Below, in pieces: positions 8,630 through 48,415 of a DNA stretch of 64,000 bases. The number at the start of each line of letters is the position of its first letter. Position 1 is the stretch's first letter. Source of the DNA: an uncultured Candidatus Poseidoniales archaeon (GTDB taxonomy: Archaea; Thermoplasmatota; Poseidoniia; Poseidoniales; Poseidoniaceae); the NCBI GenBank assembly GCA_964015875.1, contig CAXHEV010000002.1, forward strand, positions 11,310 to 75,309, given 5' to 3'. A program made the translations under genes and the position numbers. The notes under the pieces are model-generated. The model did no database searches. It was not told the origin of the DNA and worked only from the letters and a program-made list of their open reading frames with translations.

Positions 8630-10387
8630 ATGTCAGGCTACGGAATCACGGATGTCCCGACCATCAAATTGGAAGAGGATGAACAAAATTTACTCTCGTC
8701 TCTTGGTGCTGATGCCACACAATCAGCTCTTATGGCTGAGGCGATTATTCTCACTGATGAATGGGATGGCGTTCTTGGACCTGGTTCTAAAATTGCTGCC
8801 CATCGTGGTGCAGGAGCGTACCACCGCGCCTTCAGCGTCCTTTTATTCGATAGCAACAAGCGTCTTCTCCTTCAACGCAGGGCTTCAGACAAAGTGACGT
8901 TCCCCGATGTTTGGGCCAATTCCTGCTGCTCTCATCCACTTCACAGCGATGAAGAGATGGATGAAACCGATTATATTGGTTCAAAACGGGCCGCAGTTCG
9001 CAAGTTGGAGCAGGAACTTGGTATTCCACCCGAGCAAGTCCCTCTCGATTCATTCCACTTCATCACCAAAATGCGATATTCAGCGAGAATGAATGAGATC
9101 TGGATTGAACGTGAAGTAGATCATATTCTCGTCATCCAGGCCGATGTTGACTTGAATCCGAATCCTAACGAAATTTCGGAAGTCAAGTGGGTCACTCGAG
9201 ATGAACTTGAGGAGATGCTGGTCGACGATGATGAGAATGCTGGTATTATCGCCCCATGGTTCCGATGCATCGCAGCACTGGTCATGAATGAAAAATGGTG
9301 GCAGGCTGTCGGCGATTCCGAAGCACTAGAGGACCTCGTGGACGGTCAGATTCACGACATGGGTGATGTCAGCCATATGCTCCCTGATGCACAGGGTGCA
9401 GATTTGGTGACTTCTCTTGCAGAGATCAAGCCTTTGGTTGAAGCACGAATTGAGCGTGCTCTCACCCATACATCTCACCCTCGTCTTTCTGGTGCCATGA
9501 TGCACCTCGTTAAAGGCGGTGGCAAGCGATTACGGGCATGCATGCCATGGATGGTAGCCAAAGCTGTTGGTGATACACATGCAGGCCTTCTCGATGTTGG
9601 TGCTGCGATTGAAACGATTCACAATTTTACGTTAGTTCACGATGACATCATGGATGACGATGATATTCGTCGTGGTCGTAATGCTGTTCACATCGAATAT
9701 GATTTGCCGACAGCCATCAATGCAGGTGATGCTATGCTTGCTATTGCATTTGAAGCGATGGCTGTTGCCGAAGGTATTGAACACGCTATGCTCCCCTTCT
9801 TGGTAAAGCGCATTGGTCGAATGGTGCGCCGTGTATCAGAAGGTCAACAACTCGACATTGATTTTGAGACTACGGAACGTGTGACTGAGGAACAGTACAT
9901 CGAGATGATCACTGGTAAAACCGCTGTGATGTTCCTTACCTGCGCTGAAATTGGCGCTTACCTCTCAGGTGCAGATGAGGAGACCGTGCAGTGCATGCAC
10001 GACTGGGGCCTTGCCGTAGGATTGTGCTTCCAACTCATGGATGATTTGATCGATGCTCTTTCAGATTCGGAAACCCTTGGCAAGCCTTGTGGTTCTGATG
10101 TGGCCCAAGGCAAGCGTACCCTCATGGTTATTCACGCCCTAAGACAACCTGAAAGTGATGCAAAAGCAACCTTGTTGAGTGTACTCGGCAAAGGAGATGC
10201 TGCATCACAAGATGAAATTGATGCTGGTCTCAAAGCACTTGCAGACCTAGGCTCAATTCAATACGCACGTGAACGAGCTGAAGCCTACCACTCGAAGGCA
10301 CATGAATGCCTTGACCAATTACCAGAGGGACCTGCTCTACGAGCCCTTCGGGAGTTAACGGACTTCCAGTTGGCCCGAATCAGTTGA
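8630..10387 (+). CDS. Fusion protein: type-1 isopentenyl-diphosphate isomerase (Nudix IDI) plus geranylgeranyl diphosphate synthase (short-chain trans-prenyltransferase)
   Basis: The N-terminal half has HRAFSVLLFDSNKRLLLQRRASDKVTFPDVWANSCCSHPLH (the catalytic Cys in the CCSHP context) and EREVDHILV (the catalytic Glu). The C-terminal half has the FARM motif LVHDDIMDDDDIRRGR and the SARM motif FQLMDDLID. It is a single uninterrupted 585-codon frame. ATG at 8630, preceded by GAAGGGG. Confidence 0.85.
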   Translation: MSGYGITDVPTIKLEEDEQNLLSSLGADATQSALMAEAIILTDEWDGVLGPGSKIAAHRGAGAYHRAFSVLLFDSNKRLLLQRRASDKVTFPDVWANSCCSHPLHSDEEMDETDYIGSKRAAVRKLEQELGIPPEQVPLDSFHFITKMRYSARMNEIWIEREVDHILVIQADVDLNPNPNEISEVKWVTRDELEEMLVDDDENAGIIAPWFRCIAALVMNEKWWQAVGDSEALEDLVDGQIHDMGDVSHMLPDAQGADLVTSLAEIKPLVEARIERALTHTSHPRLSGAMMHLVKGGGKRLRACMPWMVAKAVGDTHAGLLDVGAAIETIHNFTLVHDDIMDDDDIRRGRNAVHIEYDLPTAINAGDAMLAIAFEAMAVAEGIEHAMLPFLVKRIGRMVRRVSEGQQLDIDFETTERVTEEQYIEMITGKTAVMFLTCAEIGAYLSGADEETVQCMHDWGLAVGLCFQLMDDLIDALSDSETLGKPCGSDVAQGKRTLMVIHALRQPESDAKATLLSVLGKGDAASQDEIDAGLKALADLGSIQYARERAEAYHSKAHECLDQLPEGPALRALRELTDFQLARIS

Positions 10388-29985: not shown

Positions 29986-30945
29986 ATGGGTTTGCTTGAA
30001 ATGTATCGGCTGTGTGGTTGGCCCATGCTGGTGCCAAACGAGGTGATTTCAGTCGTCGGGGCCGTTGGGCTCATCGCACTGGCTCTTTCATGGCACAGAA
30101 GGAACGCTTCTCCAGTTCGTTTATCACAACTAGGTTGGCTGTGCGTTGGTCTTTATTTCTTCAACGATGCATCAATTTATTTGGCTCATGATGATTTAAT
30201 TTTGACGCTGTTTTCGGTCATGACATTACCGATGGCTGTAGGTATGGCCGTCTGGGAAGCTCGTGCGGAAGACGAAAAAAGCAAAGCGTCACTCACTTGG
30301 GCTCGTGGTGCTGTTGCTTATGCAGGCGGTCCATATCTTCTCATTGCTCACGTTCCATGGCTCAGTGTTCTTGCCATTTGGTTTGTGGCAAGCCAAGCGG
30401 TATTTTTCCTGCGCTTTTCTGGGGGTGACAATATCGTCATGGGTGAAACATGGGTGAATACGGCAGAAGGACAGGTCGCATGGGCTGACTTTGAGGGTAA
30501 CAGATGGTTCATGGGATCATCTGCCGAAGAGTATGTGTTCCAAACAGAATTGCTGCTCGCTGACGGTACGCCAATTGGGATCAACTTTGTCCTGGCCTGT
30601 ACGGCTTTACAATCAATGGTCATATTCATCGGCGCTATCGCTGTCCTCGATATTGATTGGCGACGTCGCTGTCGTGTTTTGTTTCTGACCATTCCACTCA
30701 TCCATGTTCTGAATCTTTTTCGCAATGCAGGCCTGATATGGCTGCATACCACATACGTCGAATGGACGCTTCTTGGCATGTCAGTTTTTGAGTTCGGCCA
30801 CAGCTACGTCGCCCGATTTGTGTCCCTCTTTGCCATGTTCATCATTGCCTTGATCATGTTCGATCTCTTACCAGAATTACACCGGCATATTGTCCGATTG
30901 TTGAAGCCCTTGGGCTTGCTTCAGCCAAAAAACCGTACCAATTAG
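29986..30945 (+). CDS. Exosortase/archaeosortase-family polytopic membrane protein (putative)
   Basis: About seven TM helices. The candidate catalytic Cys205 in VLACTAL sits at a helix start. Arg246 lies in an N-x-x-R context (LNLFRNAG), exactly 41 residues later; this matches the Cys-to-Arg spacing I recall for archaeosortase A (from memory, unverified). A further Arg277 follows. There is a central soluble loop GDNIVMGETWVNTAEGQVAWADFEGNRWF. The gene is convergent with the giant surface protein and overlaps its 3' end by 4 nt. Confidence 0.5.
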   Translation: MGLLEMYRLCGWPMLVPNEVISVVGAVGLIALALSWHRRNASPVRLSQLGWLCVGLYFFNDASIYLAHDDLILTLFSVMTLPMAVGMAVWEARAEDEKSKASLTWARGAVAYAGGPYLLIAHVPWLSVLAIWFVASQAVFFLRFSGGDNIVMGETWVNTAEGQVAWADFEGNRWFMGSSAEEYVFQTELLLADGTPIGINFVLACTALQSMVIFIGAIAVLDIDWRRRCRVLFLTIPLIHVLNLFRNAGLIWLHTTYVEWTLLGMSVFEFGHSYVARFVSLFAMFIIALIMFDLLPELHRHIVRLLKPLGLLQPKNRTN

Positions 30946-33900
30946 CGTTGATGCCAGGGCTCTGTGGGGGAATTTCGAGTCCATGAAACCCCGCTTCCAG
31001 CAGGATATTCGATTGTTTCCGCCCCTGTAGCATCGAGCATTCCCATCAATTGTTGCGGCGGGGCAGAAACGGTTTGAGAAGGCGTAGAATCAAGCAGGTC
31101 AGCAAAGCCGTCCATCGATGTCATATCAACACCAGTTGGTGTTTCTTGTGGTGCAAACGCCTGGTTGTTATCAATCTCTGATACTTCAGGTACGTAGGAT
31201 TCGTTGGATACAGGTGAGGGCACTTCCATGGGAGATTCTTCATTCAGTCCGAGCATTTGAGATGCGATGTCCTGTTGTTTGATTTCTTCCCATTCGTTGG
31301 ATGTTTTTCCATTTTGACCTCGGCTTGCACCGACGAACGCTAAAATCAACAATGCAAACACGATTGCACCAACCAAACCTAGTGAGCCGTAGATGAGGTC
31401 ATTGGAAACACTAGGAGCAAGATCTGAATTGTCTCCAACCCCATCGCCATCTGTGTCTTCGGATTCCTTAGGGTCTTCAGGAAATGCATCTTCGTCATCT
31501 GGTACACCATCTCCATCACCATCGAACGCATCGAATGTTGTTTCACAGATGATGCTTCCAATTTCGAGTTCTTCACTGTTCAAGAATCCGTCTTTATCTG
31601 TATCGAATGCTGATGTGTCGAATTTATTTTTCAGGTCAAATGTTGCAAATTCTTTGACAGAAACTCCCTCGCCAAATGGAGATATTTGAGAAGCAATAAT
31701 CAATAATTCACTCTCACATGAACACAATTCTTGGAGCGCTTCTCTGAATTCTATATCACCATCACCATTCATATCAATTGTAGCAAAGTCACTGGCATCA
31801 GTTTCGTCGCTCGAGATAAATTCGCGCTCGTCAACAACGCCATCACCATTGCGATCCGCTTCCTCAAAGAGTGTTCTTGCTTCGTCTTCGCAGAACGTCT
31901 CAACCCCATTGTCTTCATCCGGATCAACTGGTTCTATCGGTGGGAGAGGTGAATCTTCCCAGAATGCGATGATGCTCACATCACTGATTTCTTCTTCGAC
32001 TATGAGAGTAATATCAAACCGTCCATTGGCGGGTAATTCGATGTAGAGTGTGTGCTCCGTACCTTCGCCTTCTGAGACGATTTCGACTTCTTCTGCTGTG
32101 AATTGATCAACCGGTCGGCCCTGTCTACCCTCCGTCTTTTCACCACCTGCTTTTTCATCTTCAACATCTTCTTCTTCGAAGAAACCACCGAAATTAAATT
32201 CAAGAACCGTCCCTGAGGCTTCCAGTTCAAGGCTTCCAGTTCCTCCATACGTGTTGATTTCAAGATAACTTCCGGGGCTTTCTAGTTCGACGAAGAACAA
32301 TAGTGATTCACCATCTGGTGCTTCTAGTCCAGTAATTTCCTCTCCATTGAACAATTCGATTGGCGTGCCATCATAGGACCAAATGTATCTGTCTTCAAAT
32401 GAAGCTGTAATCAAAATGTTAGCAAAGACATCCTCTGTGGTAAGAAGGATGTACCATGTGCCAGGTGTCGGGTCATTGAATCCGATTTTATCACCTGCGC
32501 CAGGCGTTGAAGATTGGAGGTCATACTCCCCAGCCGTCGGGAATTGCTCAAGACGCATGTACATGGTGGCCTCACCATAACCTTCCGAGAGGTCCACCTC
32601 TAAACGCTCAGTTCCTGTTGGCACCTCGATCTTGAAGTACTGATTTAGACCATCATATCCCGTCAACGGCCCATAGGCAACACCAGGGGTAAGTTCAACG
32701 GCATCTTCTGGAGCTGTGTTATCAGGCGCAAAGGCCATTGTAGCGACAATTGTGAAATCCATGGCTCGTTGGTAGGTGTAAGCTGTGACATAATACCGGC
32801 CTGGTTGAACGTCGTAGAGCGTAGCATCCTGTTCATTGCCTTGTCCACTGTCATAGACAATTTTTCCTTGGTTTGGGTTATTGGTTTCTCCGGAATCATC
32901 AAACTCGGGCTCATCATCGAAGAACCAGAAATCGAACGGATCTGGAACTGTGCCCCACGACAAACCGATGTCGATGTTTCCTGTTCCTCCATAGGTGCTG
33001 ACGGTTAGGCTCGAGAGATTTTCTTCCACATCTACATAATAGTAGAGGACACGATCTTCAAAATCTGCTTGACGTCCAACATCAATGGTTTGACCTGTGA
33101 CTGGAATTCCGTTGTTGAGTTCAGTCATATCCTCCTCAGATGGAGGCGGATCAGCAACGTCCCACGAGACGACCATAGTGTAATCCTCAATATCAGTCTC
33201 GGGGACCAGTAATACCCACCATGCACCGGAGTCTGGCCAGGTGAATTCCTCCCATGCATAGCCCCACATTGCTTCAATGGAACCGTCATTGTCCCAAGAA
33301 CTCGGGATTCTGTTATGACCAAAGTAGATGTTAATTGTGATTTCTTCATTCTTGAATTGGCTAGGGAAGAGATTGAAAAACAATTCTTGGGTCATTTCAT
33401 CAAGGTCCGCAAAGAAAAGAAGGTTGTCCCCTGCGTTGGCCGAAATCCCCTCGATTTCTTCATCGTTTTTAATTTGAATGACTTGGGCAACAATGGTACC
33501 ATCTGGCATCACCCAATCGGCACCAAAAATGGTTCCGGTGGAGTTGGAGGCATCATCGCTTGTGAGCATGCCTTCACCCTCGTGGAAGTTCCAATGTGAG
33601 ACCAATATTGGTTCATCACTGAGATTTGACATTCCCGTTCCAATTGAGATGTTGTCTAACATACCCATGAAATAATTGCAATCACATCCAGCGCCCATGC
33701 TGGCAATGAACAGTTCATCACAATCATCTCCTGATGTAAAGCAGTCATTCGAACCGAAGTCTCCGGCCGGGATCAGCGCTTGTTCAGCACTGATGGCTCC
33801 GGCTGCGACCCCATTCACTCGGAATTCTCCACCGACTCCTTCGATCACTTCGACTTCGACGTGCGACCAAGTTTCAATAGGGACAGTGACATTGGCAGTA

Positions 33901-34634
33901 GGGTGTTGTGAGAGACTGTACTCTGAGGAATAAGCCAGTGTGCCAGCGTTGAGGTACATGCCCCAACCATAATCACCTTTCATGGTGATGAATTGAATGC
34001 CTTCGTCATGGAATGGGTATATCCAAGCGGAGATAGAGATGCTACCGGTAATGTTCAACGCTTCGTTGTGTTCGATCTCAATACGGTCGCCTTCGTCAGC
34101 GAACCTCAAGGAATAGTCAGCACCAGGTCCAACTTCTACCACACCATAGACTGGAAAGTATTGTGGATCATTTTCCAAATCGTTCCAAGTCCCTGGCATA
34201 ATGTTTCCCATGTTGGTGCTGGCGATGTGAACATAACCTTCGTCATCGCTTGCAGAGGGTTGATCTGCACCCCAGTTTCGATAGTAGAAAGGAGCGCCAT
34301 TGTGCCAGCGGTATGCACCGTCATTGTCGTCATCGTACAGTCCGGTCCATAGGTGGCGAGAAGTATTGTCGAACGAGGCGAAGGTATCAAACAACCACTG
34401 GTTTTCAGTCTCATCATCAATCGTGACTAGGAATCCGTCTAAACCACGTGCGACTTCAGCAGCAACGGTCCAAGAGCTCTCACTCAGGAGGTAATATGTG
34501 TGGTTATTTGCAGGGTTAACTGCGGTGTCGAGGATGACGATATCTTCGACGTCTTGGGCTTGGGCTATGGGCGTTATTGGCGCCATAAGGCTCAACAGAA
34601 ATAGCATGACAAGCATCGTTGCCTTTGTGCGCAT
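30942..34634 (-). CDS. Giant secreted, membrane-anchored surface/adhesin-like protein: signal peptide, Cys-less C-type-lectin-like domain, LamG/ConA-like domain, three PPC (pre-peptidase C-terminal) beta domains, dockerin/EF-hand-like Ca-binding loops, one TM helix, and a roughly 150-aa cytoplasmic tail
   Basis: Signal peptide MRTKATMLVMLFLLSLMAPITPIAQAQ. CTLD hallmarks LWTGLYDDDNDGAYRWHNGAPFYYRNWGADQPS...GTWNDLEND, without the usual cysteines. LamG: ISISAWIYPFHDEGIQFITMKGDYGWGMYL...ETWSHVEVEV...FRVNGV. PPC-like: YYYVDVEENLSSLTVSTYGGTGNIDIGLS...GRYYVTAYTY, QYFKIEVPTGTERLEVDLSEGYGEATMYMRL, LLFFVELESPGSYLEINTYGGTGSLELE. Ca loops: DRNGDGVVDEREF, DMNGDGDIEFRE, DTDKDGFLNSEELE, DGDGDGVPDDED, DTDGDGVGDNSD. 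TM helix LIYGSLGLVGAIVFALLILAFVGAS followed by RGQNGK. Confidence 0.85.
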   Translation of the reverse strand: MRTKATMLVMLFLLSLMAPITPIAQAQDVEDIVILDTAVNPANNHTYYLLSESSWTVAAEVARGLDGFLVTIDDETENQWLFDTFASFDNTSRHLWTGLYDDDNDGAYRWHNGAPFYYRNWGADQPSASDDEGYVHIASTNMGNIMPGTWNDLENDPQYFPVYGVVEVGPGADYSLRFADEGDRIEIEHNEALNITGSISISAWIYPFHDEGIQFITMKGDYGWGMYLNAGTLAYSSEYSLSQHPTANVTVPIETWSHVEVEVIEGVGGEFRVNGVAAGAISAEQALIPAGDFGSNDCFTSGDDCDELFIASMGAGCDCNYFMGMLDNISIGTGMSNLSDEPILVSHWNFHEGEGMLTSDDASNSTGTIFGADWVMPDGTIVAQVIQIKNDEEIEGISANAGDNLLFFADLDEMTQELFFNLFPSQFKNEEITINIYFGHNRIPSSWDNDGSIEAMWGYAWEEFTWPDSGAWWVLLVPETDIEDYTMVVSWDVADPPPSEEDMTELNNGIPVTGQTIDVGRQADFEDRVLYYYVDVEENLSSLTVSTYGGTGNIDIGLSWGTVPDPFDFWFFDDEPEFDDSGETNNPNQGKIVYDSGQGNEQDATLYDVQPGRYYVTAYTYQRAMDFTIVATMAFAPDNTAPEDAVELTPGVAYGPLTGYDGLNQYFKIEVPTGTERLEVDLSEGYGEATMYMRLEQFPTAGEYDLQSSTPGAGDKIGFNDPTPGTWYILLTTEDVFANILITASFEDRYIWSYDGTPIELFNGEEITGLEAPDGESLLFFVELESPGSYLEINTYGGTGSLELEASGTVLEFNFGGFFEEEDVEDEKAGGEKTEGRQGRPVDQFTAEEVEIVSEGEGTEHTLYIELPANGRFDITLIVEEEISDVSIIAFWEDSPLPPIEPVDPDEDNGVETFCEDEARTLFEEADRNGDGVVDEREFISSDETDASDFATIDMNGDGDIEFREALQELCSCESELLIIASQISPFGEGVSVKEFATFDLKNKFDTSAFDTDKDGFLNSEELEIGSIICETTFDAFDGDGDGVPDDEDAFPEDPKESEDTDGDGVGDNSDLAPSVSNDLIYGSLGLVGAIVFALLILAFVGASRGQNGKTSNEWEEIKQQDIASQMLGLNEESPMEVPSPVSNESYVPEVSEIDNNQAFAPQETPTGVDMTSMDGFADLLDSTPSQTVSAPPQQLMGMLDATGAETIEYPAGSGVSWTRNSPTEPWHQR

Positions 34635-34656
34635 GGGAAGAACTCCTTACCGTCCG

Positions 34657-34663
34657 ATATATA
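34657..34663 (-). promoter_or_regulatory. TATA box (TATATAT on the minus strand) about 26 nt upstream of the surface-protein ATG, giving a leaderless or very short-leader transcript
   Basis: The minus strand reads ...CCAGTGGGTATATATCGGACGGTAAGGAGTTCTTCCCATG. A purine-rich stretch precedes the TATA box. An AAGGAG also lies 9 nt before the ATG. Confidence 0.35.
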
Positions 34664-34699
34664 CCCACTGGTGCGGTGTTTTTACACTTTGAATTAAAA

Positions 34700-37600
34700 T
34701 CATTTCAGGCGTTTTCCACCGATTCGCAATTCTGTTTGAAGTGGCATTTGATGTTCCCAAGCGAATTCCTTGACAATACGCCAAGCCTTCTCCGAGCCTT
34801 CGTAATCCTTGACATCGATGATTTTATTTCTGGTGTTTGCTTTGAATGCGGCGATTGGTTCAGCATTTTTGAACACTAGGTAGGCTGATCCAAATCCAAA
34901 CCTTTCCTTCATTATATCTGCGAAATATGGAGCGATTGGATCGCTTGGAGGTAGCACGAAATCCCGAATGGGGGGGATGTCTTTGGCTTCATCGAGCAGG
35001 TTTTTGCGACCCCAACAGACCTGATCTAACTCATCGATGAGGAATCCCTTCACGAGCGTTCCATCCTCTTCAAATGATGTCAGAACGGCTTTGATTTCCT
35101 CAGGTTTGAACGGCGTGCCGGCCAATCTCAGTAATTGTTTGAGTGTGATGACGGGGAAGTCTTGAACAAGCGCTCGAATATATTCCCTGCGCAACTCTAT
35201 TGGATCTACGCCGGCACGTAGTTTGACGGTCCTAAAACCACCACGGAAGTCTTGAACGATATGCCCTGATCGAATTAAGGGCTGAACTAATTTTCTAAAT
35301 TCCGATTGAGTCAATGCGTGGCGTTCCTTGAACAGGTTCGGATCCGTATTGCTGCTGAAGAATTCGACGATATCCCACAAATCCTCATCAAAAGGCTCAC
35401 CACGAATAGCTAACAAGTTCTGGAAATGCTCGTACGTTGCCCATACTTGATGGCCACGCAGGTTGATCCCTTGGTGGAGTCGGTTTGCACTTGCCATGCT
35501 CTTAAGATCGACTCGATACAATTCACAACGTCCACGAAGGGCAAAATCATCGCGTATTTCTGTGACCTCACGAAGCGCCATGACCTCATTTTCCATTCTT
35601 GTTTTTTGGTGGAGGTTGTGACGATGGAACAGTGCTCGCTCAGCGATTTCTCGTGGTTGCGGGTCAACGACACCGCCCCGAATCATGCGTTCTCCAGTAA
35701 TCTTGAAACCAATTCGTTCCAGGGCTTCACGTGTTTCTTTACCAAGGCTAGAAACAGGTTCACTGTTGAAGTTTGACAGCACTGCAACATCGACAAGTTG
35801 GTCTGCATGGTTGTCCAGCAGGAGTTTGAATGCATCACAGAATTCATCGATGTAAGCAGTTGGAACGTGTAAATCTTTGATGACGAGGTAGTCATTGATC
35901 TTGAACATTAAGACCTTGCCAATTGGATCAATGCCTTTGAACACAGGCAGGTACCAACCTCGATCAAGGACGCTACGAACTTCCCAAATGAAACGGGACA
36001 CATACGGATCGGATTGTGTAAGGATGCGCATTGTACGGTCTTCACGGCGAGGTTGTTGCAGCAATTCGACTTCCTCTGGCATACAATAAAATGCTTCAGG
36101 ATCAGGCACTAAGGCCATGACTTTTGCAATTCGCCCCGACTTTTCCAAGTTCATCAAAGCTACGGTGAGATCCTCGAATGAGCGAGTGACGTAGAATCTC
36201 AATGTGTTGCCTTTGACCGGTCCCATTCTACGGATCACATCCACCAGAGCGCTCTCGAAATCAAGTGGTTCATAGACCTCGTGAACCCTGTGGAAGAGCG
36301 ACAAGCGTCGTCGTCTGCCAGGGACATCTTCGAATTGTTTAACCACAAGCATTTGCCGCTCCAAGTTCGACATTGCGTACTTGAGATCACGTTGGAGGGA
36401 GCGATGTTCGTCGCCCTTAGGGAAATCGGCCATGATTTCTTGACGAGTGACATTTTCACCAACTGGAATTCTTTTGAGCAGTTCTTCTTCCATCGGACCA
36501 ACCCAAGGTTCGGGCTTGAGTCCGAGGAGCATTGGGATCGTTTCTTTTGTTGTGTAGCCCATTCTGTTGTGCAACAACCGGCCCATGATGACGTCTGAAT
36601 CGAGTTGCAAATCTTGCCAATCTTTGAACCTAAAGTCGGTCACCCTGTAGAGAAGCTCCTGTTGTTTTTGAAACAAGACGTGGGAGTCGAAAGCAGAGAA
36701 ACCATCGCCATATTGCTGGAATGTTTTGTCCAGAACCAAATTTTGAACCCAGCGATATTCAACGACGTCTTCTGAACTATCAATCAAGCGATGCTCGTCA
36801 ATCTTGAGGATGTATTCCGCTTCGTCCGTTTGTTTATAGAATCCTACAGATAGGACATTTCGCGTTTCTAATTCATGGAGAATCTTGTCAACCATCGCTC
36901 GTGGGAACGGTAAACGCTCTTCTAACTGGTCCCCAGTATGAGGACCTTCACTGCCTAACATTTCGATGATCTTGACTCGCATTGCTTCGTGTGGATCACC
37001 CAGTGATTGTTCGGTCCAAGTGGTAGGAGTGCGCTCAGCAAATGCGGTTGCTGTTTTGTAAGAGAGACCGCGCGTGTGCAATTCTCTCAAATCTGTGACG
37101 TCTTTCCCACCGTTGACAGATAAGCAACCGAGGGTCCCGTGAATTTCTGCCATGAACGGCGAGAACCACTTTCCGTCGAGTTGTTCTGAACCAGTACCAT
37201 CAAGTTTGGTAATTCTTCCTTCGGCACATAACTCAGTGACCCAACCTCGAATGGTATCGATTTCGATGCCTGCGAGTTTCTCTTTGTACAGAGGATTGTT
37301 GAATTCTTGATCCAGTCCTCCACCGTGCGACATCAGCGTCATCAATCCCTTTGCATTGGTTGGAATTGGTGCTTTGTCAAGGTAGAATTTGTCCAATTGT
37401 TCACCAGTCAGTTCGGTGGCTAGACTGCGAGTTCCAAGGAGTCGCTGTAAGATGGCTGGATCGATATCTTTGACGAGGTAGGCCCTAGTTTTCATCGCCA
37501 TCAAATCTTCAAATGCAGACATGAACAACGACATTCCAAGCCGGGATGGTACAGTGACTTTATTATGAACAATTCGTGCATCACCTTGCACACATGATTG

Positions 37601-39982
37601 TAAGAATACCTCCAAACTCTTCATGTCGATATCGCCGAACAAGATTTCGTTTTTGGCTTCACGCATCAAAAGGCTGTCATCGGTTGTTCTGTGTTTATTG
37701 AGCAAGGCTTCTGCCTTCTGTTGAAATTGCTGAGGGCTGATTTCTTCGGCACCAATTCGCTTCGGAATAATCATAGAACGACCAGCAACTTCTCTGAATC
37801 GTTTTGCAAAAATTTGGGTGTTGACCACATATCGTTCTATGACTTCGTTGTGGTTATTATTTCTAAATTCCTTATACATCTGTCCAGGGTCAACTTCTTC
37901 TGAAGTTCGTATCAGCAGTCCATTCTCATCGAACGACATTTCGATTACTGCGATGTTGTTGGATTCTGCAATGCCCGCCATGAAGTATCCAAGAGCAGTG
38001 TTGAATCCTCGGCCTCGACATGTGGTAATCATGTAGGTCGGATGGCCACCAGTCAGCACTTGTTCGACAAGAATTCTGTTCGGATCTGGAACTTGGAATG
38101 AATCAAAACTGTGTTCTTCAAGGTGCCTTGCTATGGCGTTTGCAACGTCATTGGACAAACCATAGGCATCACGAAGGAGAATACGTGGGTCCTGTTCTCT
38201 TCGTAGTGAGACAATACAGTGGCCAATGAGGTCCAACAATGCACTGGATAGTTCCCTTGAGCGAGAACGGGCTTCTCCGGACCATGATGGAACAGTTGGA
38301 CGATGGCCAGTGACTGATGCGACATTGACCCTCGTACCTTGGATGTTGGTGACTCTGTATGTTGAACCACCCAAAAGAATCACGTCGCCGCCACGTAGAT
38401 TGGACACGAAGGACCCTGAAAGTTGTCCAAGAATGGAGCCTTCTGCATTGAATACGAGGTATGAATTATCAGGAGCAATGGTTCCAATATTGGTATAATA
38501 AATCATACGAGAATACCCACGTTTTCCGTAGATATTTTCTTCCCAATCTACCCATACACGTCGTTCTTCTTCTAGCATGTCGAGTACTTCTATGAAATCG
38601 TCATACTCGAAATTTCGATAGGACCAAGCATTCACGATAATTTCGTAAGCTTCATCGATGTCAATTTGATTGATAATGACGAGCCCAATCATGAATTGTG
38701 CCACCACATCCAAGCAATTTTCAGGGAAGTCTAGCCTGTCCATGTCGCCGGTTTGAATCGCTGCTTGCAAGGCTGCTAACTCCAACAAATCATCAACGCT
38801 TGAGGGGAGGAAACGGGCACGAGGTATTCCACCAACATGGTGGCCAGCACGGCCTATTCGCTGAAGTGCTGTCGCAATGTCGCCAGGGCTGCCGATTTGC
38901 AGTACGAGATCAACCGAACCAATATCGATACCCATTTCTAACGAGGACGAGGTGACGACGGCTCGAAGATGGCCATGTTTGAGTTTCTTTTCGACGTCTA
39001 AACGTATTTTTTTGTCCATTGAACCGTGATGTCCAGCAACCAAATCACCGAGGTAGGGGCGCAATTTAAGGACAATATTTTCAGTCATTTTTCTTGTGTT
39101 CGCAAACACAAGAGTTGTGTTGTGTGCGGCTATGAAATCTGCAACTGCTTCGATGTTTTTGTCAAATATTTTCATCACTGACAAATCACTGAATTTTGGA
39201 TCTGTGATTAAAATATCTAGGTCCAATTCCCGAGATCCCGAAACCTTTGCAATACATACCTTGGTCGCTGCAGTTCTGCTTTCTTGATCATCGCTAGCCA
39301 CTAAAAATTCTGCAACTGTTTCCAATGGTTCCATCGTAGCAGAAATACCAATTCGTTGCACTGGGCGGGTTAGAAGTGTGTCAAGGTACGACAAAGTTAG
39401 GGCAAGATGGACACCACGCTTGGTTGGTACGAGTGAGTGCAACTCGTCAATGATCATGTATTCGACTTCGCTGACGATCGGTTGGAATCTTGGTGATGTG
39501 ATGGCAATAGCAAGGCTTTCGGGTGTGGTAATGAGGATGTGCGGAGGATTGCGAAGCATCTTTTGGCGTTCGCTTTGAGGTGTATCGCCGGTTCGCAATC
39601 CAACCTTAATCTCCTGGGCACGATCGGGGAGGTAGCGCTCAGATATTTCCTTGAGTGGACCTAGAAGGTTGCGCTGAATATCGTTGGCAAGTGCCTTGAT
39701 TGGTGAGATGTAGACACAATACACCCGCTTCTCGAGTTTTCCATCAAGGGCTCGACGAACCAGCTGGTCAATGATTGAAAGAAAGGCAGTCAACGTCTTA
39801 CCAGAACCTGTAGGGGAGCAAAGCAGCAGGTGCTCTTGCTCAATAATGGCTGGAATTGCTAATTTTTGAGGGCGAGTGAAATCTGGAAATTTATCTTTGA
39901 ACCAGTTTCGAACGGGTGGACATAACCGTTCCAACAAAGCCTCTGTTTCGAGAGGTTGGTCTAGATAGTGTATATCAGCCAT
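34700..39982 (-). CDS. lhr: Full-length Lhr-type DExH-box helicase (Lhr-core plus a long C-terminal region, 1760 aa)
   Basis: Motif I CSPTGSGKT and motif II MIIDELHSLVPTKRGVHLALTLSYL, a close match to Lhr DEIH...KRGAHLAL. Motif VI region QRIGRAGH. Lhr-core spans roughly the first 900 aa and is followed by about 850 more residues. ATG at 39982. Confidence 0.85.
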   Translation of the reverse strand: MADIHYLDQPLETEALLERLCPPVRNWFKDKFPDFTRPQKLAIPAIIEQEHLLLCSPTGSGKTLTAFLSIIDQLVRRALDGKLEKRVYCVYISPIKALANDIQRNLLGPLKEISERYLPDRAQEIKVGLRTGDTPQSERQKMLRNPPHILITTPESLAIAITSPRFQPIVSEVEYMIIDELHSLVPTKRGVHLALTLSYLDTLLTRPVQRIGISATMEPLETVAEFLVASDDQESRTAATKVCIAKVSGSRELDLDILITDPKFSDLSVMKIFDKNIEAVADFIAAHNTTLVFANTRKMTENIVLKLRPYLGDLVAGHHGSMDKKIRLDVEKKLKHGHLRAVVTSSSLEMGIDIGSVDLVLQIGSPGDIATALQRIGRAGHHVGGIPRARFLPSSVDDLLELAALQAAIQTGDMDRLDFPENCLDVVAQFMIGLVIINQIDIDEAYEIIVNAWSYRNFEYDDFIEVLDMLEEERRVWVDWEENIYGKRGYSRMIYYTNIGTIAPDNSYLVFNAEGSILGQLSGSFVSNLRGGDVILLGGSTYRVTNIQGTRVNVASVTGHRPTVPSWSGEARSRSRELSSALLDLIGHCIVSLRREQDPRILLRDAYGLSNDVANAIARHLEEHSFDSFQVPDPNRILVEQVLTGGHPTYMITTCRGRGFNTALGYFMAGIAESNNIAVIEMSFDENGLLIRTSEEVDPGQMYKEFRNNNHNEVIERYVVNTQIFAKRFREVAGRSMIIPKRIGAEEISPQQFQQKAEALLNKHRTTDDSLLMREAKNEILFGDIDMKSLEVFLQSCVQGDARIVHNKVTVPSRLGMSLFMSAFEDLMAMKTRAYLVKDIDPAILQRLLGTRSLATELTGEQLDKFYLDKAPIPTNAKGLMTLMSHGGGLDQEFNNPLYKEKLAGIEIDTIRGWVTELCAEGRITKLDGTGSEQLDGKWFSPFMAEIHGTLGCLSVNGGKDVTDLRELHTRGLSYKTATAFAERTPTTWTEQSLGDPHEAMRVKIIEMLGSEGPHTGDQLEERLPFPRAMVDKILHELETRNVLSVGFYKQTDEAEYILKIDEHRLIDSSEDVVEYRWVQNLVLDKTFQQYGDGFSAFDSHVLFQKQQELLYRVTDFRFKDWQDLQLDSDVIMGRLLHNRMGYTTKETIPMLLGLKPEPWVGPMEEELLKRIPVGENVTRQEIMADFPKGDEHRSLQRDLKYAMSNLERQMLVVKQFEDVPGRRRRLSLFHRVHEVYEPLDFESALVDVIRRMGPVKGNTLRFYVTRSFEDLTVALMNLEKSGRIAKVMALVPDPEAFYCMPEEVELLQQPRREDRTMRILTQSDPYVSRFIWEVRSVLDRGWYLPVFKGIDPIGKVLMFKINDYLVIKDLHVPTAYIDEFCDAFKLLLDNHADQLVDVAVLSNFNSEPVSSLGKETREALERIGFKITGERMIRGGVVDPQPREIAERALFHRHNLHQKTRMENEVMALREVTEIRDDFALRGRCELYRVDLKSMASANRLHQGINLRGHQVWATYEHFQNLLAIRGEPFDEDLWDIVEFFSSNTDPNLFKERHALTQSEFRKLVQPLIRSGHIVQDFRGGFRTVKLRAGVDPIELRREYIRALVQDFPVITLKQLLRLAGTPFKPEEIKAVLTSFEEDGTLVKGFLIDELDQVCWGRKNLLDEAKDIPPIRDFVLPPSDPIAPYFADIMKERFGFGSAYLVFKNAEPIAAFKANTRNKIIDVKDYEGSEKAWRIVKEFAWEHQMPLQTELRIGGKRLK

Positions 39983-46822: not shown

Positions 46823-48415
46823 TCACCCGAGGTTTTCAGCCACCATTGGCACCTTGAACGTACCACCATTCACATTCACGTCACCAACGGTTGTCCACAG
46901 TGGCGGCGAACGGTCGATGCCTGTCGAATACATACCTGGCCGATAATATGCATTGAGGAGGTCACCGCTTGGATCTGGTTCTTCGATGTATGCGATGTAA
47001 GCTGTGGGTGTGTGAAGAAGCCATTTGTTGTTGACCACATCGACTTGACCCTGAACATAGCATGTTGCAAGTTCAATATCTCGTTCCTCGCAATACTCTT
47101 GGCTGAGGGGGAGCTGAATGTATCCCCAAGCGTGTGCTTCCCAGACCTGATAGTTTCCGTCTGTCAAAGCACCAAAGGCATACCAACCGGGAAGGTTCTT
47201 GACCCGCAACAAGGATAGGAAGGCGTTGGTTTGTTCATCACAATCACCCGTTCCGGCTGCAAGGCATTCCGGACCACTGCGCGCAATAATCGGAGCTTGC
47301 TTGTCATAGGTTGCGTGCTTGTGAAGATAATCGAAAGCTGCCCGTGCGTAGCCATATGCGTTCTCTGTCTCCCCTTCAGGAAGACTTTGGCTGATTTGAT
47401 TTGCTACTTCAATCACTTCTTCGTGTTGGGCATTGATGGCCCAGCCACCAAGCGATCGACTGTCGATGACAGGGCTCATGCCCCGGTCGTACCACTTTGC
47501 GGTTCGAAATTGTTGTGCGTCTCCAAATGCATCACGAAGAGAGACGTCATCAAAGGTCCCGCTGGTGTCCATACTGATGCCGTTATCAATCCCATTGATT
47601 CGTGAATCCACACGTCCAGAATCCCACCACGAGTAGGCAGTACTTGTGAGTGTGATTGTGAACATAAACGACGATGTTTGACCTGGATCCAGATTCAACT
47701 TCACCTTAACACACGATGCAACACCGCAGAAGTCATTCCCCTCGCCGCTACCCGGCCACCATAATTCATGACCGTTATTTGTGGTGATTTTATCCTCGAC
47801 CGAGCGCGTTGGTAATCCATTCAATGGAATGTTAAACACCTCATTCGTGTCGATTGTCATGGTGAGTGCCGTGATTTTTTGAACGCTCTGTGTTGGCATA
47901 GCAAGCGAATCATCAGTATATTCAAAATGGGTGTTTGACCCATTCAGTGATCTCACATCAGGTGGAATGACTATATTTTCCATAAGATACCCCTCACCAC
48001 CATTATTGACGACTTCAATAGTTTTCGCGACTGAATAGGTTGTTTCGATTGGGTAGAGGTGGAACGGGGCTGCCTGTAAGAGAACAGATTCCTTGACCGC
48101 AGCAAATTGCGCTATTGATGCTTCTTGAACAGTCGGAGATGTGAACACGAAAGCAATGAAAATCACCATGACAATCATTCGTGATTTGTTTCGTGTTCGT
48201 TTCATGATGTTTTTCGATCGCCCTGAATGGGTTTGTATGACCCCGGGTGCAGTAGGCCTGCTCGTCATTTTGTAGGTCGTTTCTTTAGAGCCGCTGTTAA
48301 ATTGCTGTTCCAAGGCAAATTCCTTGGAGTCAAGATTTGCCAACACGCGACCGCATGAATAGCAAATTGTGTCGCCCGGTAAGGTGACACTTCGGCAATA
48401 AGGGCAGGAACCCAT
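46823..48415 (-). CDS. Transglutaminase-like cysteine-protease-fold membrane protein with an N-terminal cytoplasmic zinc ribbon
   Basis: CPYC...CYSCG at residues 4-22. TM helix MIVMVIFIAFVFT. Extracellular TG-like core GTGDCDEQTNAFLSLLRVKNLPGWYAFG (Cys) ... EAHAWGYIQL (His). ATG at 48415. Confidence 0.7.
   Translation of the reverse strand: MGSCPYCRSVTLPGDTICYSCGRVLANLDSKEFALEQQFNSGSKETTYKMTSRPTAPGVIQTHSGRSKNIMKRTRNKSRMIVMVIFIAFVFTSPTVQEASIAQFAAVKESVLLQAAPFHLYPIETTYSVAKTIEVVNNGGEGYLMENIVIPPDVRSLNGSNTHFEYTDDSLAMPTQSVQKITALTMTIDTNEVFNIPLNGLPTRSVEDKITTNNGHELWWPGSGEGNDFCGVASCVKVKLNLDPGQTSSFMFTITLTSTAYSWWDSGRVDSRINGIDNGISMDTSGTFDDVSLRDAFGDAQQFRTAKWYDRGMSPVIDSRSLGGWAINAQHEEVIEVANQISQSLPEGETENAYGYARAAFDYLHKHATYDKQAPIIARSGPECLAAGTGDCDEQTNAFLSLLRVKNLPGWYAFGALTDGNYQVWEAHAWGYIQLPLSQEYCEERDIELATCYVQGQVDVVNNKWLLHTPTAYIAYIEEPDPSGDLLNAYYRPGMYSTGIDRSPPLWTTVGDVNVNGGTFKVPMVAENLG

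Follow-up and report, generated by a model that had tools for sequence, protein, structure and literature searches.

A predicted Ca2+-dependent lectin-type surface protein with a cysteine-free C-type lectin domain, conserved throughout the Poseidoniaceae

What kind of protein is encoded by the open reading frame (ORF) of 1230 codons that lies in a stretch of 64,000 nucleotides from an uncultured Candidatus Poseidoniales archaeon (contig CAXHEV010000002.1, positions 11,310 to 75,309; hereafter the window), and does its combination of domains belong to one genome or to a whole lineage? An earlier note, made from the letters alone, had described the product as an unusual mosaic for an archaeon, with a cysteine-free C-type lectin-like domain (CTLD), a LamG domain, three PPC domains, Ca2+-binding loops and a membrane anchor, and had suggested a glycan-binding adhesin. 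Marine group II (MG-II) archaea are uncultured and among the most abundant of planktonic archaea. Ideas on how they attach to phytoplankton or particles have drawn chiefly on archaellum, 'thrombospondin' and flotillin genes (PMC6461757). With the lectin gene described here, a specific candidate for a surface lectin is at hand across the family; it is single-copy and strongly conserved, its putative Ca2+/sugar site is well defined, and part of the ectodomain (CTLD-LamG, residues 27-385) lends itself to expression. Its product is an uncharacterised modular protein of the Ca2+-dependent lectin type, built of known modules and revealing no new mechanism. The description in the earlier note proves largely right, and its interpretation reasonable but carried too far. 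The reading that we place just on the probable side is that of a type-I membrane-anchored, Ca2+-dependent glycan-binding surface adhesin or receptor of a Poseidoniaceae (MGIIa) archaeon.

The ORF and the parts of its product are arranged in the window as follows, the basis being given in brackets:

30942..34634, minus strand: ORF of 1230 aa, ATG start, uninterrupted
34557..34634, minus strand: start codon and Sec-type signal peptide, residues 1-26, MRTKATMLVMLFLLSLMAPITPIAQA followed by Q (hydropathy, sequence)
34125..34556, minus strand: Cys-free C-type lectin-like domain, residues 27-170 (Pfam, phmmer against PDB, hhalign)
33483..34124, minus strand: LamG/ConA-like (Laminin_G_3, pentraxin-like) jelly-roll, residues 171-384, with four invariant Cys (298, 305, 317, 319)
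33147..33482, minus strand: PPC-like beta-sandwich 1, residues 385-496 (structure model with a confidence of about 90, no Pfam match)
32715..33146, minus strand: PPC-like beta-sandwich 2, residues 497-640, carrying an acidic, disordered insertion (about 574-589)
32385..32714, minus strand: canonical PPC domain, third of the series, residues 641-750 (Pfam PF04151)
31944..32384, minus strand: PPC-like beta-sandwich 4, residues 751-897, carrying an E/K-rich, disordered insertion (about 816-842)
31548..31943, minus strand: helical EF-hand block, residues 898-1029, with invariant Cys 915, 971 and 973 (Pfam, structure model)
31401..31547, minus strand: membrane-proximal acidic segment, residues 1030-1078, with two TSP3-like DxDxDGxxDxxD loops and invariant Cys 1030
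31323..31400, minus strand: single transmembrane helix, residues ~1079-1104, followed by R/K (Kyte-Doolittle window up to 2.75)
31071..31322, minus strand: variable cytoplasmic linker, residues 1105-1188, rich in S/T/P/Q and acidic (composition)
30942..31070, minus strand: conserved C-terminal cytoplasmic motif, residues 1189-1230, plus stop (orthologue alignment)

The ORF of the earlier note is confirmed in length and start codon, the end that it gave, 34663, taking in a TATATAT element upstream of the gene. Regarding the reality of the gene, the protein database contains one protein of 99% identity and over 100 full-length ones at 47-76%, and the named matches are labelled Candidatus Poseidoniaceae or Poseidonia; these names, together with the presence of TiaS and archaeosortase A nearby, bear out the archaeal host. 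With each GTDB species represented by one genome, a scan found relatives encoded in 197 genomes, and the best 80 of the 197 relatives are all from Poseidoniales, including the original MG-II composite genome CM001443.1. Besides, the order Lhr helicase, lectin gene, archaeosortase A (convergent), HAD phosphatase and TiaS is kept, and the other genes of the window are housekeeping ones (EF-2, SRP54, aminoacyl-tRNA synthetases, Trk, P-type ATPase, OPT transporter), which indicates a core gene of the family and no island gene. The lectin gene is a real, single-copy, syntenic core gene of the Poseidoniaceae (MGIIa). A chimeric assembly, which the earlier note had kept in mind as a possible undoing of its description, is excluded by the 99%-identical protein, the full-length orthologues and the conserved gene order. 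Among 50,697 phage records searched with tblastn for viral homologues, the sole match was a C-type lectin of a Flavobacterium phage, at 27-31% identity. The orthologues are mostly annotated as 'hypothetical' or 'pre-peptidase C-terminal domain-containing protein', sometimes as 'lectin-like protein', which gives the present assignment its relevance for annotation.

The N-terminal domain is matched over residues 53-144 by the Pfam family Lectin_C (PF00059), with 31.0 bits against a gathering cut-off of 22.6, and the family was also matched in 33/33 orthologues scanned (best E 3.6e-11). A phmmer search against PDB sequences returned the CTLDs of PLA2R, the mannose-receptor family, CL-P1, CEL-I, lithostathine, DC-SIGN and others, single domains reaching E 1e-7. 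The landmarks W96-T-G-L99, W110-H-N-G113 and Y118-R-N-W121 are present, with their W, G and L positions invariant in the 33 orthologues; the earlier note had therefore been right about WTGL and W-x-x-G, but the spacing from W121 to P126 is of four residues and not of three. No Cys occurs in residues 1-297 of this protein, nor in the CTLD (residues 27-172) of 33/33 orthologues. In an hhalign alignment with rat mannose-binding protein A (MBP-A), whose sequence was entered by hand, C128, C195 and C209 are aligned to A62, Y134 and N155, and the fourth canonical Cys corresponds, by inspection, to V166. That every structural Cys has been replaced is consequently true of the CTLD but does not extend to the whole protein, which contains 8 Cys (298, 305, 317, 319, 915, 971, 973 and 1030), all of them invariant across the orthologues in an alignment whose numbering equals the real numbering minus 1, since its first row is without Met; four lie in LamG and four in the EF-hand block and acidic segment. 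As the CTLD of the 33 orthologues is devoid of Cys while eight invariant ones are kept elsewhere, the loss of disulfides belongs to the lineage of the domain rather than to the organism.

In the AlphaFold2 (AF2) model of the CTLD, the secondary-structure order beta-beta-alpha-alpha-beta...beta is seen, with a core at a predicted local distance difference test (pLDDT) value of 67-82 and a long loop, at about residues 104-154, that falls under 50 and is not placed confidently. The earlier note's question whether the CTLD fold is kept without disulfides receives a partial answer from this model. In the alignment with the hand-entered MBP-A sequence, Q125-P-S127, E132 and W150-N-D152 fall on E185-P-N187, E193 and W204-N-D206, and D101/D105 on D161/E165, two residues of Ca-site 1. 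Among the orthologues Q125, P126, E132 and WND are invariant and S127 is conserved in at least 90%. According to this alignment, 4/5 ligands are retained at the Ca-site-2 positions relative to MBP-A, with Ser replacing Asn/Asp, and the principal Ca2+/sugar site, still a putative one, would thus be largely retained. Compared with the animal Ca2+-dependent C-type lectins (MBP-A, CL-P1, CEL-I, mannose receptor/PLA2R), which are members of the same Pfam family, the archaeal domain aligns in the WIGL-type motif, WxxG, (E/Q)Px...E...WND and two acidic residues of Ca-site 1, whereas it lacks all four structural Cys, has Ser as the third residue of the motif and shares only ~24-30% identity.

Two sequons (N-x-S/T) are kept in 33/33 orthologues: N44 (~34503-34505), inside the CTLD hallmark NPxNNHTY, and N248 (~33891-33893), in LamG. 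Both could be N-glycosylation sites; N44 may instead be structural, since bacterial relatives keep N-G-H at that place. The idea of a variable protein of a diversity-generating retroelement with a CLec fold was considered and rejected, as the CTLD is N-terminal, is among the most conserved parts of the protein and gives a canonical Lectin_C match; no reverse transcriptase was found among the scanned neighbours, no direct search for a template repeat having been run.

Where does a CTLD without disulfides belong? When the CTLD profile was searched against 1.84 billion representative proteins, 17,390 matches were obtained at E<=0.001, and the top 150, re-scored per domain, include many proteins from outside the family with Cys-free CTLDs at 60-116 bits per domain in this family-profile search, whereas animal CTLDs of the PDB reach 8-34 bits per domain in a single-sequence search. 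They have in common the hallmark NPxN(G/N)HxYYLL...W..AEA...LxG.L.TI.D..EN.W...TF...R.LW(I/T)GL.D...EG...W..G.P..Y.NW..(E/Q)P(N/D/S)...E.Y....WND...YGVVEV, free of structural Cys. Judging from gene neighbourhoods, we infer that the closest of these proteins are bacterial: the gene for P0203 (GCA_044224905.1), whose domain is 43% identical to the archaeal CTLD (E 7e-29) and which also has Laminin_G_3 domains, is surrounded by DUF1501, DUF7133 and cytochrome-c genes on a 2.25-Mb contig, and other Cys-free CTLD proteins have sigma-54/Kdo neighbours or, as in P0196, a PEP-CTERM signal. The bacterial domains retain EPN, QPD or EPS, then WND, and their partner modules are LamG_3 (often), NPCBM, galactose-binding-like, cadherin-like and Big_9. 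By its sequence, the archaeal CTLD is placed in a broad prokaryotic clade, to which the pairing of CTLD and LamG plausibly belongs as well. Since many bacterial Lectin_C domains are also without disulfides, it is the animal subgroup, and not the Pfam family, that the disulfides define. What had looked like an unusual mosaic is therefore better described as a family-wide core gene whose Cys-free CTLD belongs to a large prokaryotic clade in which Laminin_G_3 is a frequent partner.

The archaeal and bacterial domains thus resemble each other in the hallmark, in the absence of Cys and in a frequent pairing with Laminin_G_3. Unlike the bacterial ones, the archaeal family shows QPS in place of EPN/QPD, and its beta3-beta4 insertion, HIA(S/G)TNMGNIMPG, is longer and nearly invariant; its CTLD is single whereas the bacterial ones are often in tandem, and the protein ends in a transmembrane helix and a cytoplasmic tail, whereas two of the bacterial relatives examined have PEP-CTERM or T9SS-associated modules. 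Canonical Lectin_C domains free of disulfides are common in marine prokaryotes and extend to archaea, which matters for the evolution and the annotation of CTLDs. As a side observation, the bacterial clade (P0196, P0187, P0229, P0174, P0203, P0213 and others; loci L003, L084 and L085), on which no literature was found, often has its CTLDs in tandem and combined with LamG_3, NPCBM, PEP-CTERM or T9SS-associated modules.

The remainder of the ectodomain would present this tip. The LamG domain announced by the earlier note is supported by Laminin_G_3 (PF13385), with 34.6 bits against a cut-off of 27.6 when the segment was scanned alone, and by a jelly-roll in the AF2 model at a pLDDT of ~90, so that both the hidden Markov model and the fold agree. 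Below it, the AF2 model of residues 380-1078 (mean pLDDT 80.7) contains four beta-sandwiches, at ~385-493, 500-635, 642-747 and 759-894. With the Pfam PPC family (PF04151), the third reaches 41.8 bits against a cut-off of 25.9, the second (497-645) remains under the cut-off with 20.7 bits (E 7.5e-4), the fourth (747-900) gives a partial match at E 0.035, and the first (385-500) none. Profile comparison by hhalign nevertheless relates sandwich 1 to 4 (probability 96.8%, E 2e-10), 2 to 4 (E 2e-11) and 2 to 3 (E 2e-5), and the three PPC domains of the earlier note thereby become four homologous PPC-like beta-sandwiches. In Foldseek searches, the third matches the collagen-binding domains of ColG (5iku, E 2.6e-9), and the stalk also matches CUB arrays.

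Near the membrane, three canonical EF-hand loops are found in a helical stretch (915-1029), DRNGDGVVDERE at 927-938, DMNGDGDIEFRE at 954-965 and DTDKDGFLNSEE at 1011-1022. Scanned alone, residues 896-1080 give EF-hand_5 at 45.4 bits (cut-off 25.9) and EF-hand_1 at 43.7 bits in four stretches; in the scan of the full-length protein, the EF-hand scores are under the cut-offs. The AF2 model of the block has eight short helices (pLDDT 80-90) in a helix-loop-helix pattern. The following acidic segment, where AF2 confidence is low, has the two TSP3-like loops DGDGDGVPDDED and DTDGDGVGDNSD, at residues 1038-1049 and 1061-1072, with Pfam TSP_3 (PF02412) at E 0.12 and TSP3_bac at E 0.25, both under the cut-off. 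The Ca2+-binding loops of the earlier note are accordingly recovered, as are the type-I anchoring and the long cytoplasmic tail: one helix followed by R/K, also present in the orthologue alignment, then 126 aa that are rich in S/T/P/Q and acidic. Within this tail, the linker is probably disordered and has no Pfam match, and the C-terminal motif LMGMxDxxGxExIEYPxGSGxxWxRxxxxxxW is found in 32/33 orthologues, all except P0098. This motif matches no Pfam family at E<=10, whether in the tail of the window or in 10 orthologous copies, and has no other copy within the 64-kb window. At the other end, the orthologues carry an equivalent n-region and hydrophobic core, and cleavage of the signal peptide is predicted after residue 26. 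The 1230-aa protein as a whole is very acidic (241 D+E for 42 K+R), and no catalytic domain and no resemblance to a known S-layer protein family were detected in it by Pfam and NCBIfam scans, nor, as to catalytic domains, by scans of each segment.

The domains are conserved to very different extents, as expressed by mean pairwise identity over the 33 orthologues:

TSP3-like segment: 0.83, the most conserved part of the protein
CTLD: 0.73
canonical PPC domain (residues 641-750): 0.69, the best kept of the four PPC-like domains
LamG: 0.58
last 42 residues: 0.50
EF-hand block: 0.39
cytoplasmic linker: 0.21

Taken together, these features can be read as a protein that would bind Ca2+ and sugar, be displayed at the cell surface, adhere, and possibly act through its tail. 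It would be exported by Sec and lose its signal peptide; the Cys-free CTLD and the adjacent LamG/pentraxin-like domain would form the tip, kept away from the cell by a stalk of four PPC-type beta-sandwiches; Ca2+ of seawater would load and stiffen the EF-hand block and the two TSP3-like loops near the membrane; the single helix would serve as anchor, and the disordered linker would lead to the conserved motif of about 40 aa, presumably touching an intracellular partner. At the tip, the CTLD would bind a pair of sugar hydroxyls through a Ca2+ held by Q125, S127, E132, N151 and D152, which stand where mannose-binding protein has its E185/N187/E193/N205/D206 site. The idea of a glycan-binding adhesin fits the retained Ca2+/sugar-site residues, and supporting it is the fact that bacterial relatives join the Cys-free CTLD to carbohydrate-binding or adhesin modules. 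In the light of a near-invariant CTLD and long loop, encoded by a single-copy syntenic gene among housekeeping genes, the ligand would probably be one conserved glycan, a common algal or particle polysaccharide or a glycan of the cell's own envelope, and probably not a shifting set of targets; a tip under strong constraint and a cytoplasmic end that is conserved speak for a single fixed ligand outside and a partner inside. Among the traits of Poseidoniales that they connect with adhesion, Rinke et al. 2019 (PMC6461757) name 'thrombospondin' genes, and these may include the present lectin family. What sets the protein apart is above all that a dominant uncultured archaeal lineage conserves it family-wide and that its CTLD is disulfide-free and of bacterial type.

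Large Ca2+-dependent bacterial adhesins such as the ice-binding MpIBP of Marinomonas primoryensis offer a comparison in their overall logic, with distal ligand-binding domains of lectin type, a beta-sandwich stalk and many Ca2+ sites that seawater would fill. The archaeal protein differs from them in having neither an RTX/type 1 secretion signal nor a long array of identical repeats; besides, it is anchored by its own transmembrane helix in an archaeal membrane, and the domain families are not the same.

Several points weigh against an adhesin or receptor of this kind. The long loop expected to hold the Ca2+/sugar site is precisely the region that AF2 could not place, and the structural searches returned no CTLD match, their lists having been dominated by LamG. 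In the EPN/QPD motif, the third residue is Ser and not N/D, two positions of Ca-site 1 are non-acidic in this protein (A128 and G133), and the MBP-A sequence used for mapping the residues was entered by hand. Instead of sugars, many CTLDs have proteins, ice or minerals as ligands. A tip so conserved is atypical for adhesins facing diverse surfaces, and a structural or self-recognition role fits it at least as well. Finally, a literature search found no paper on this protein family and neither experimental nor expression data for it.

Two elements lie next to the gene:

29986..30945, plus strand: archaeosortase A (ArtA), convergent neighbour (NCBIfam TIGR04125, 96.7 bits against a cut-off of 75)
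34657..34686, minus strand: promoter-like region (sequence and 78 orthologous loci)

The stop codons of ArtA and of the lectin gene overlap tail-to-tail (30942-30945), and with no intergenic spacer in the window, the convergent transcripts must end within each other's coding region. ArtA lies at most 2.2 kb downstream of the lectin gene in 65/80 loci and is directly adjacent in 43; in one further, truncated locus it is on the opposite side of the match. Where it is not adjacent, one gene is inserted, Oxidored_FMN in the two loci whose genes were listed. The orthologous loci show a gap of 3-17 nt between the two genes, or one inserted gene. As for the lectin protein being a canonical ArtA substrate with a TIGR04126-type signal, this was rejected: no PGF precedes the transmembrane helix (NDLIY(G/S) stands there instead), no PGF-CTERM model was matched in the NCBIfam scan, and 126 residues follow the helix, with a conserved end. 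Known PGF-CTERM/ArtA substrates, such as the S-layer glycoprotein of Haloferax volcanii, resemble it in acidity and in a C-terminal hydrophobic helix, and the lectin gene adjoins artA; however, the lectin protein lacks the PGF tripeptide and has ~125 residues, including the conserved motif, in place of a short basic tail. As the whole block is syntenic, the adjacency carries little functional weight.

Upstream of the ATG, TATATAT is found at 34663-34657, its centre 26 nt from the start codon as the earlier note had reported, and the element is phylogenetically conserved. It is part of the TATA-like GTATATAT at 34664-34657 (-30..-23 from the ATG), preceded by ACCAGT at 34672-34667 (-38..-33), so that the window reads ACCAGT-GGG-TATATAT at the same positions as the footprint of the orthologues. 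Most of the 78 orthologous loci have ACCA[AGT]T-N3-TTGATAAG/TTGATATA at -38..-22, the rest of the spacer being unconserved. The footprint fits an archaeal pair of B recognition element (BRE) and TATA box ~26 nt upstream of a leaderless or near-leaderless start. What the element shows is its position and its phylogenetic conservation, and the strong expression predicted in the earlier note goes beyond these. Translation led by a Shine-Dalgarno sequence was rejected, since the orthologues do not conserve the candidate AAGGAG, which lies at -14..-9, between the TATA element and the ATG. In addition, the window has an upstream element, TGTAAAAACA, at 34686-34677, and the orthologous loci often have TGTAAAATCA ~10 nt further upstream of ACCA[AGT]T. 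This second element, TGTAAAA(A/T)CA (34677-34686 in the window; loci L004-L083), is common to many Poseidoniaceae genera and could be the binding site of a regulator.

Among the other explanations, the protein could be a structural component of the envelope (S-layer, S-layer anchor or glycocalyx organiser), whose tip would recognise surface glycans of the cell itself or an adjacent envelope protein and whose Ca2+-loaded stalk would set the envelope spacing, with no attachment to foreign surfaces. We hold this to be unlikely, albeit deserving serious thought: a single-copy core gene with family-wide synteny in housekeeping surroundings, a near-invariant tip as expected of a fixed self ligand, the two sequons kept in all orthologues, the conserved promoter and the conserved place beside ArtA all agree with it, and a very acidic protein with many Ca-binding motifs recalls the haloarchaeal S-layer glycoproteins. 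However, the missing PGF-CTERM and the long conserved tail make it no canonical ArtA substrate, the ArtA adjacency counts for little within a fully syntenic block, and known S-layer families show no resemblance to it; moreover, the highly expressed MG-II surface proteins in one metatranscriptome are collagen-like disordered proteins and not this family (PMC5069720). The cytoplasmic end invites another explanation, which we consider quite improbable, namely a transmembrane sensor that would relay the binding of glycan or Ca2+ through the helix to the C-terminal motif, which would recruit a partner, much as in animal type-I lectin receptors. The conservation of this ~40-aa motif behind an unconserved linker (0.50 against 0.21, in 32/33 orthologues), the type-I topology with positive-inside residues after the helix, and the absence of a match to any known family, which leaves room for a new interaction module, speak for such a sensor; yet neither the protein nor a conserved neighbour contains a signalling domain (kinase, HAMP, MCP and the like), the tail might just as well be kept for anchoring, sorting or turnover, and the P0098-type clade, whose proteins end early, has the ectodomain without the motif.

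The PPC domains raise a further alternative, to which we give the smallest chance of all: the protein would capture substrates, tethering glycoproteins or polysaccharides for the secreted peptidases and glycosidases of MGII, with PPC domains derived from secreted proteases. Such domains are typical of the C-termini of secreted peptidases, as the name of PF04151 implies, one of them matches the collagen-binding domains of ColG, and an OPT oligopeptide transporter is encoded in the window. In the metatranscriptome cited above, extracellular S8 peptidases of MG-II, besides the collagen-like disordered surface proteins, are highly expressed (PMC5069720). On the other hand, the 1230 aa contain no catalytic domain, the conserved neighbours include no peptidase, and capture overlaps so far with adhesion that the two are hard to tell apart by sequence alone. 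A bolder version of the glycan-binding adhesin or receptor itself can also be formulated, although we think it very unlikely: this protein would serve MGIIa cells as their main glycan receptor, with a disulfide-free CTLD of bacterial type coupled through the helix to a new ~40-aa cytoplasmic interaction motif, such that attachment to glycans of phytoplankton or particles, or the docking of magroviruses, would be sensed inside. If true, it would constitute an archaeal counterpart of the animal lectin receptors, and the adjacency to ArtA would reflect coordinated remodelling of the envelope.

Three further ORFs of the window were noticed. The upstream neighbour of the lectin gene (34700-39982, minus strand) encodes an Lhr-type helicase of 1760 aa (DEAD, Helicase_C, WH_Lhr, DEAD_assoc) that has an AlkZ-like DNA glycosylase region at its C-terminus, and this fusion has the same length of 1760 aa in Poseidonia loci. 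The ORF at 46823-48415 (minus strand) encodes a 530-aa protein with a transglutaminase-like core and adjoins TrkA/TrkH genes, and the 585-aa ORF at 8630-10387 (plus strand) joins an N-terminal NUDIX domain to a polyprenyl synthetase domain, an unusual fusion.

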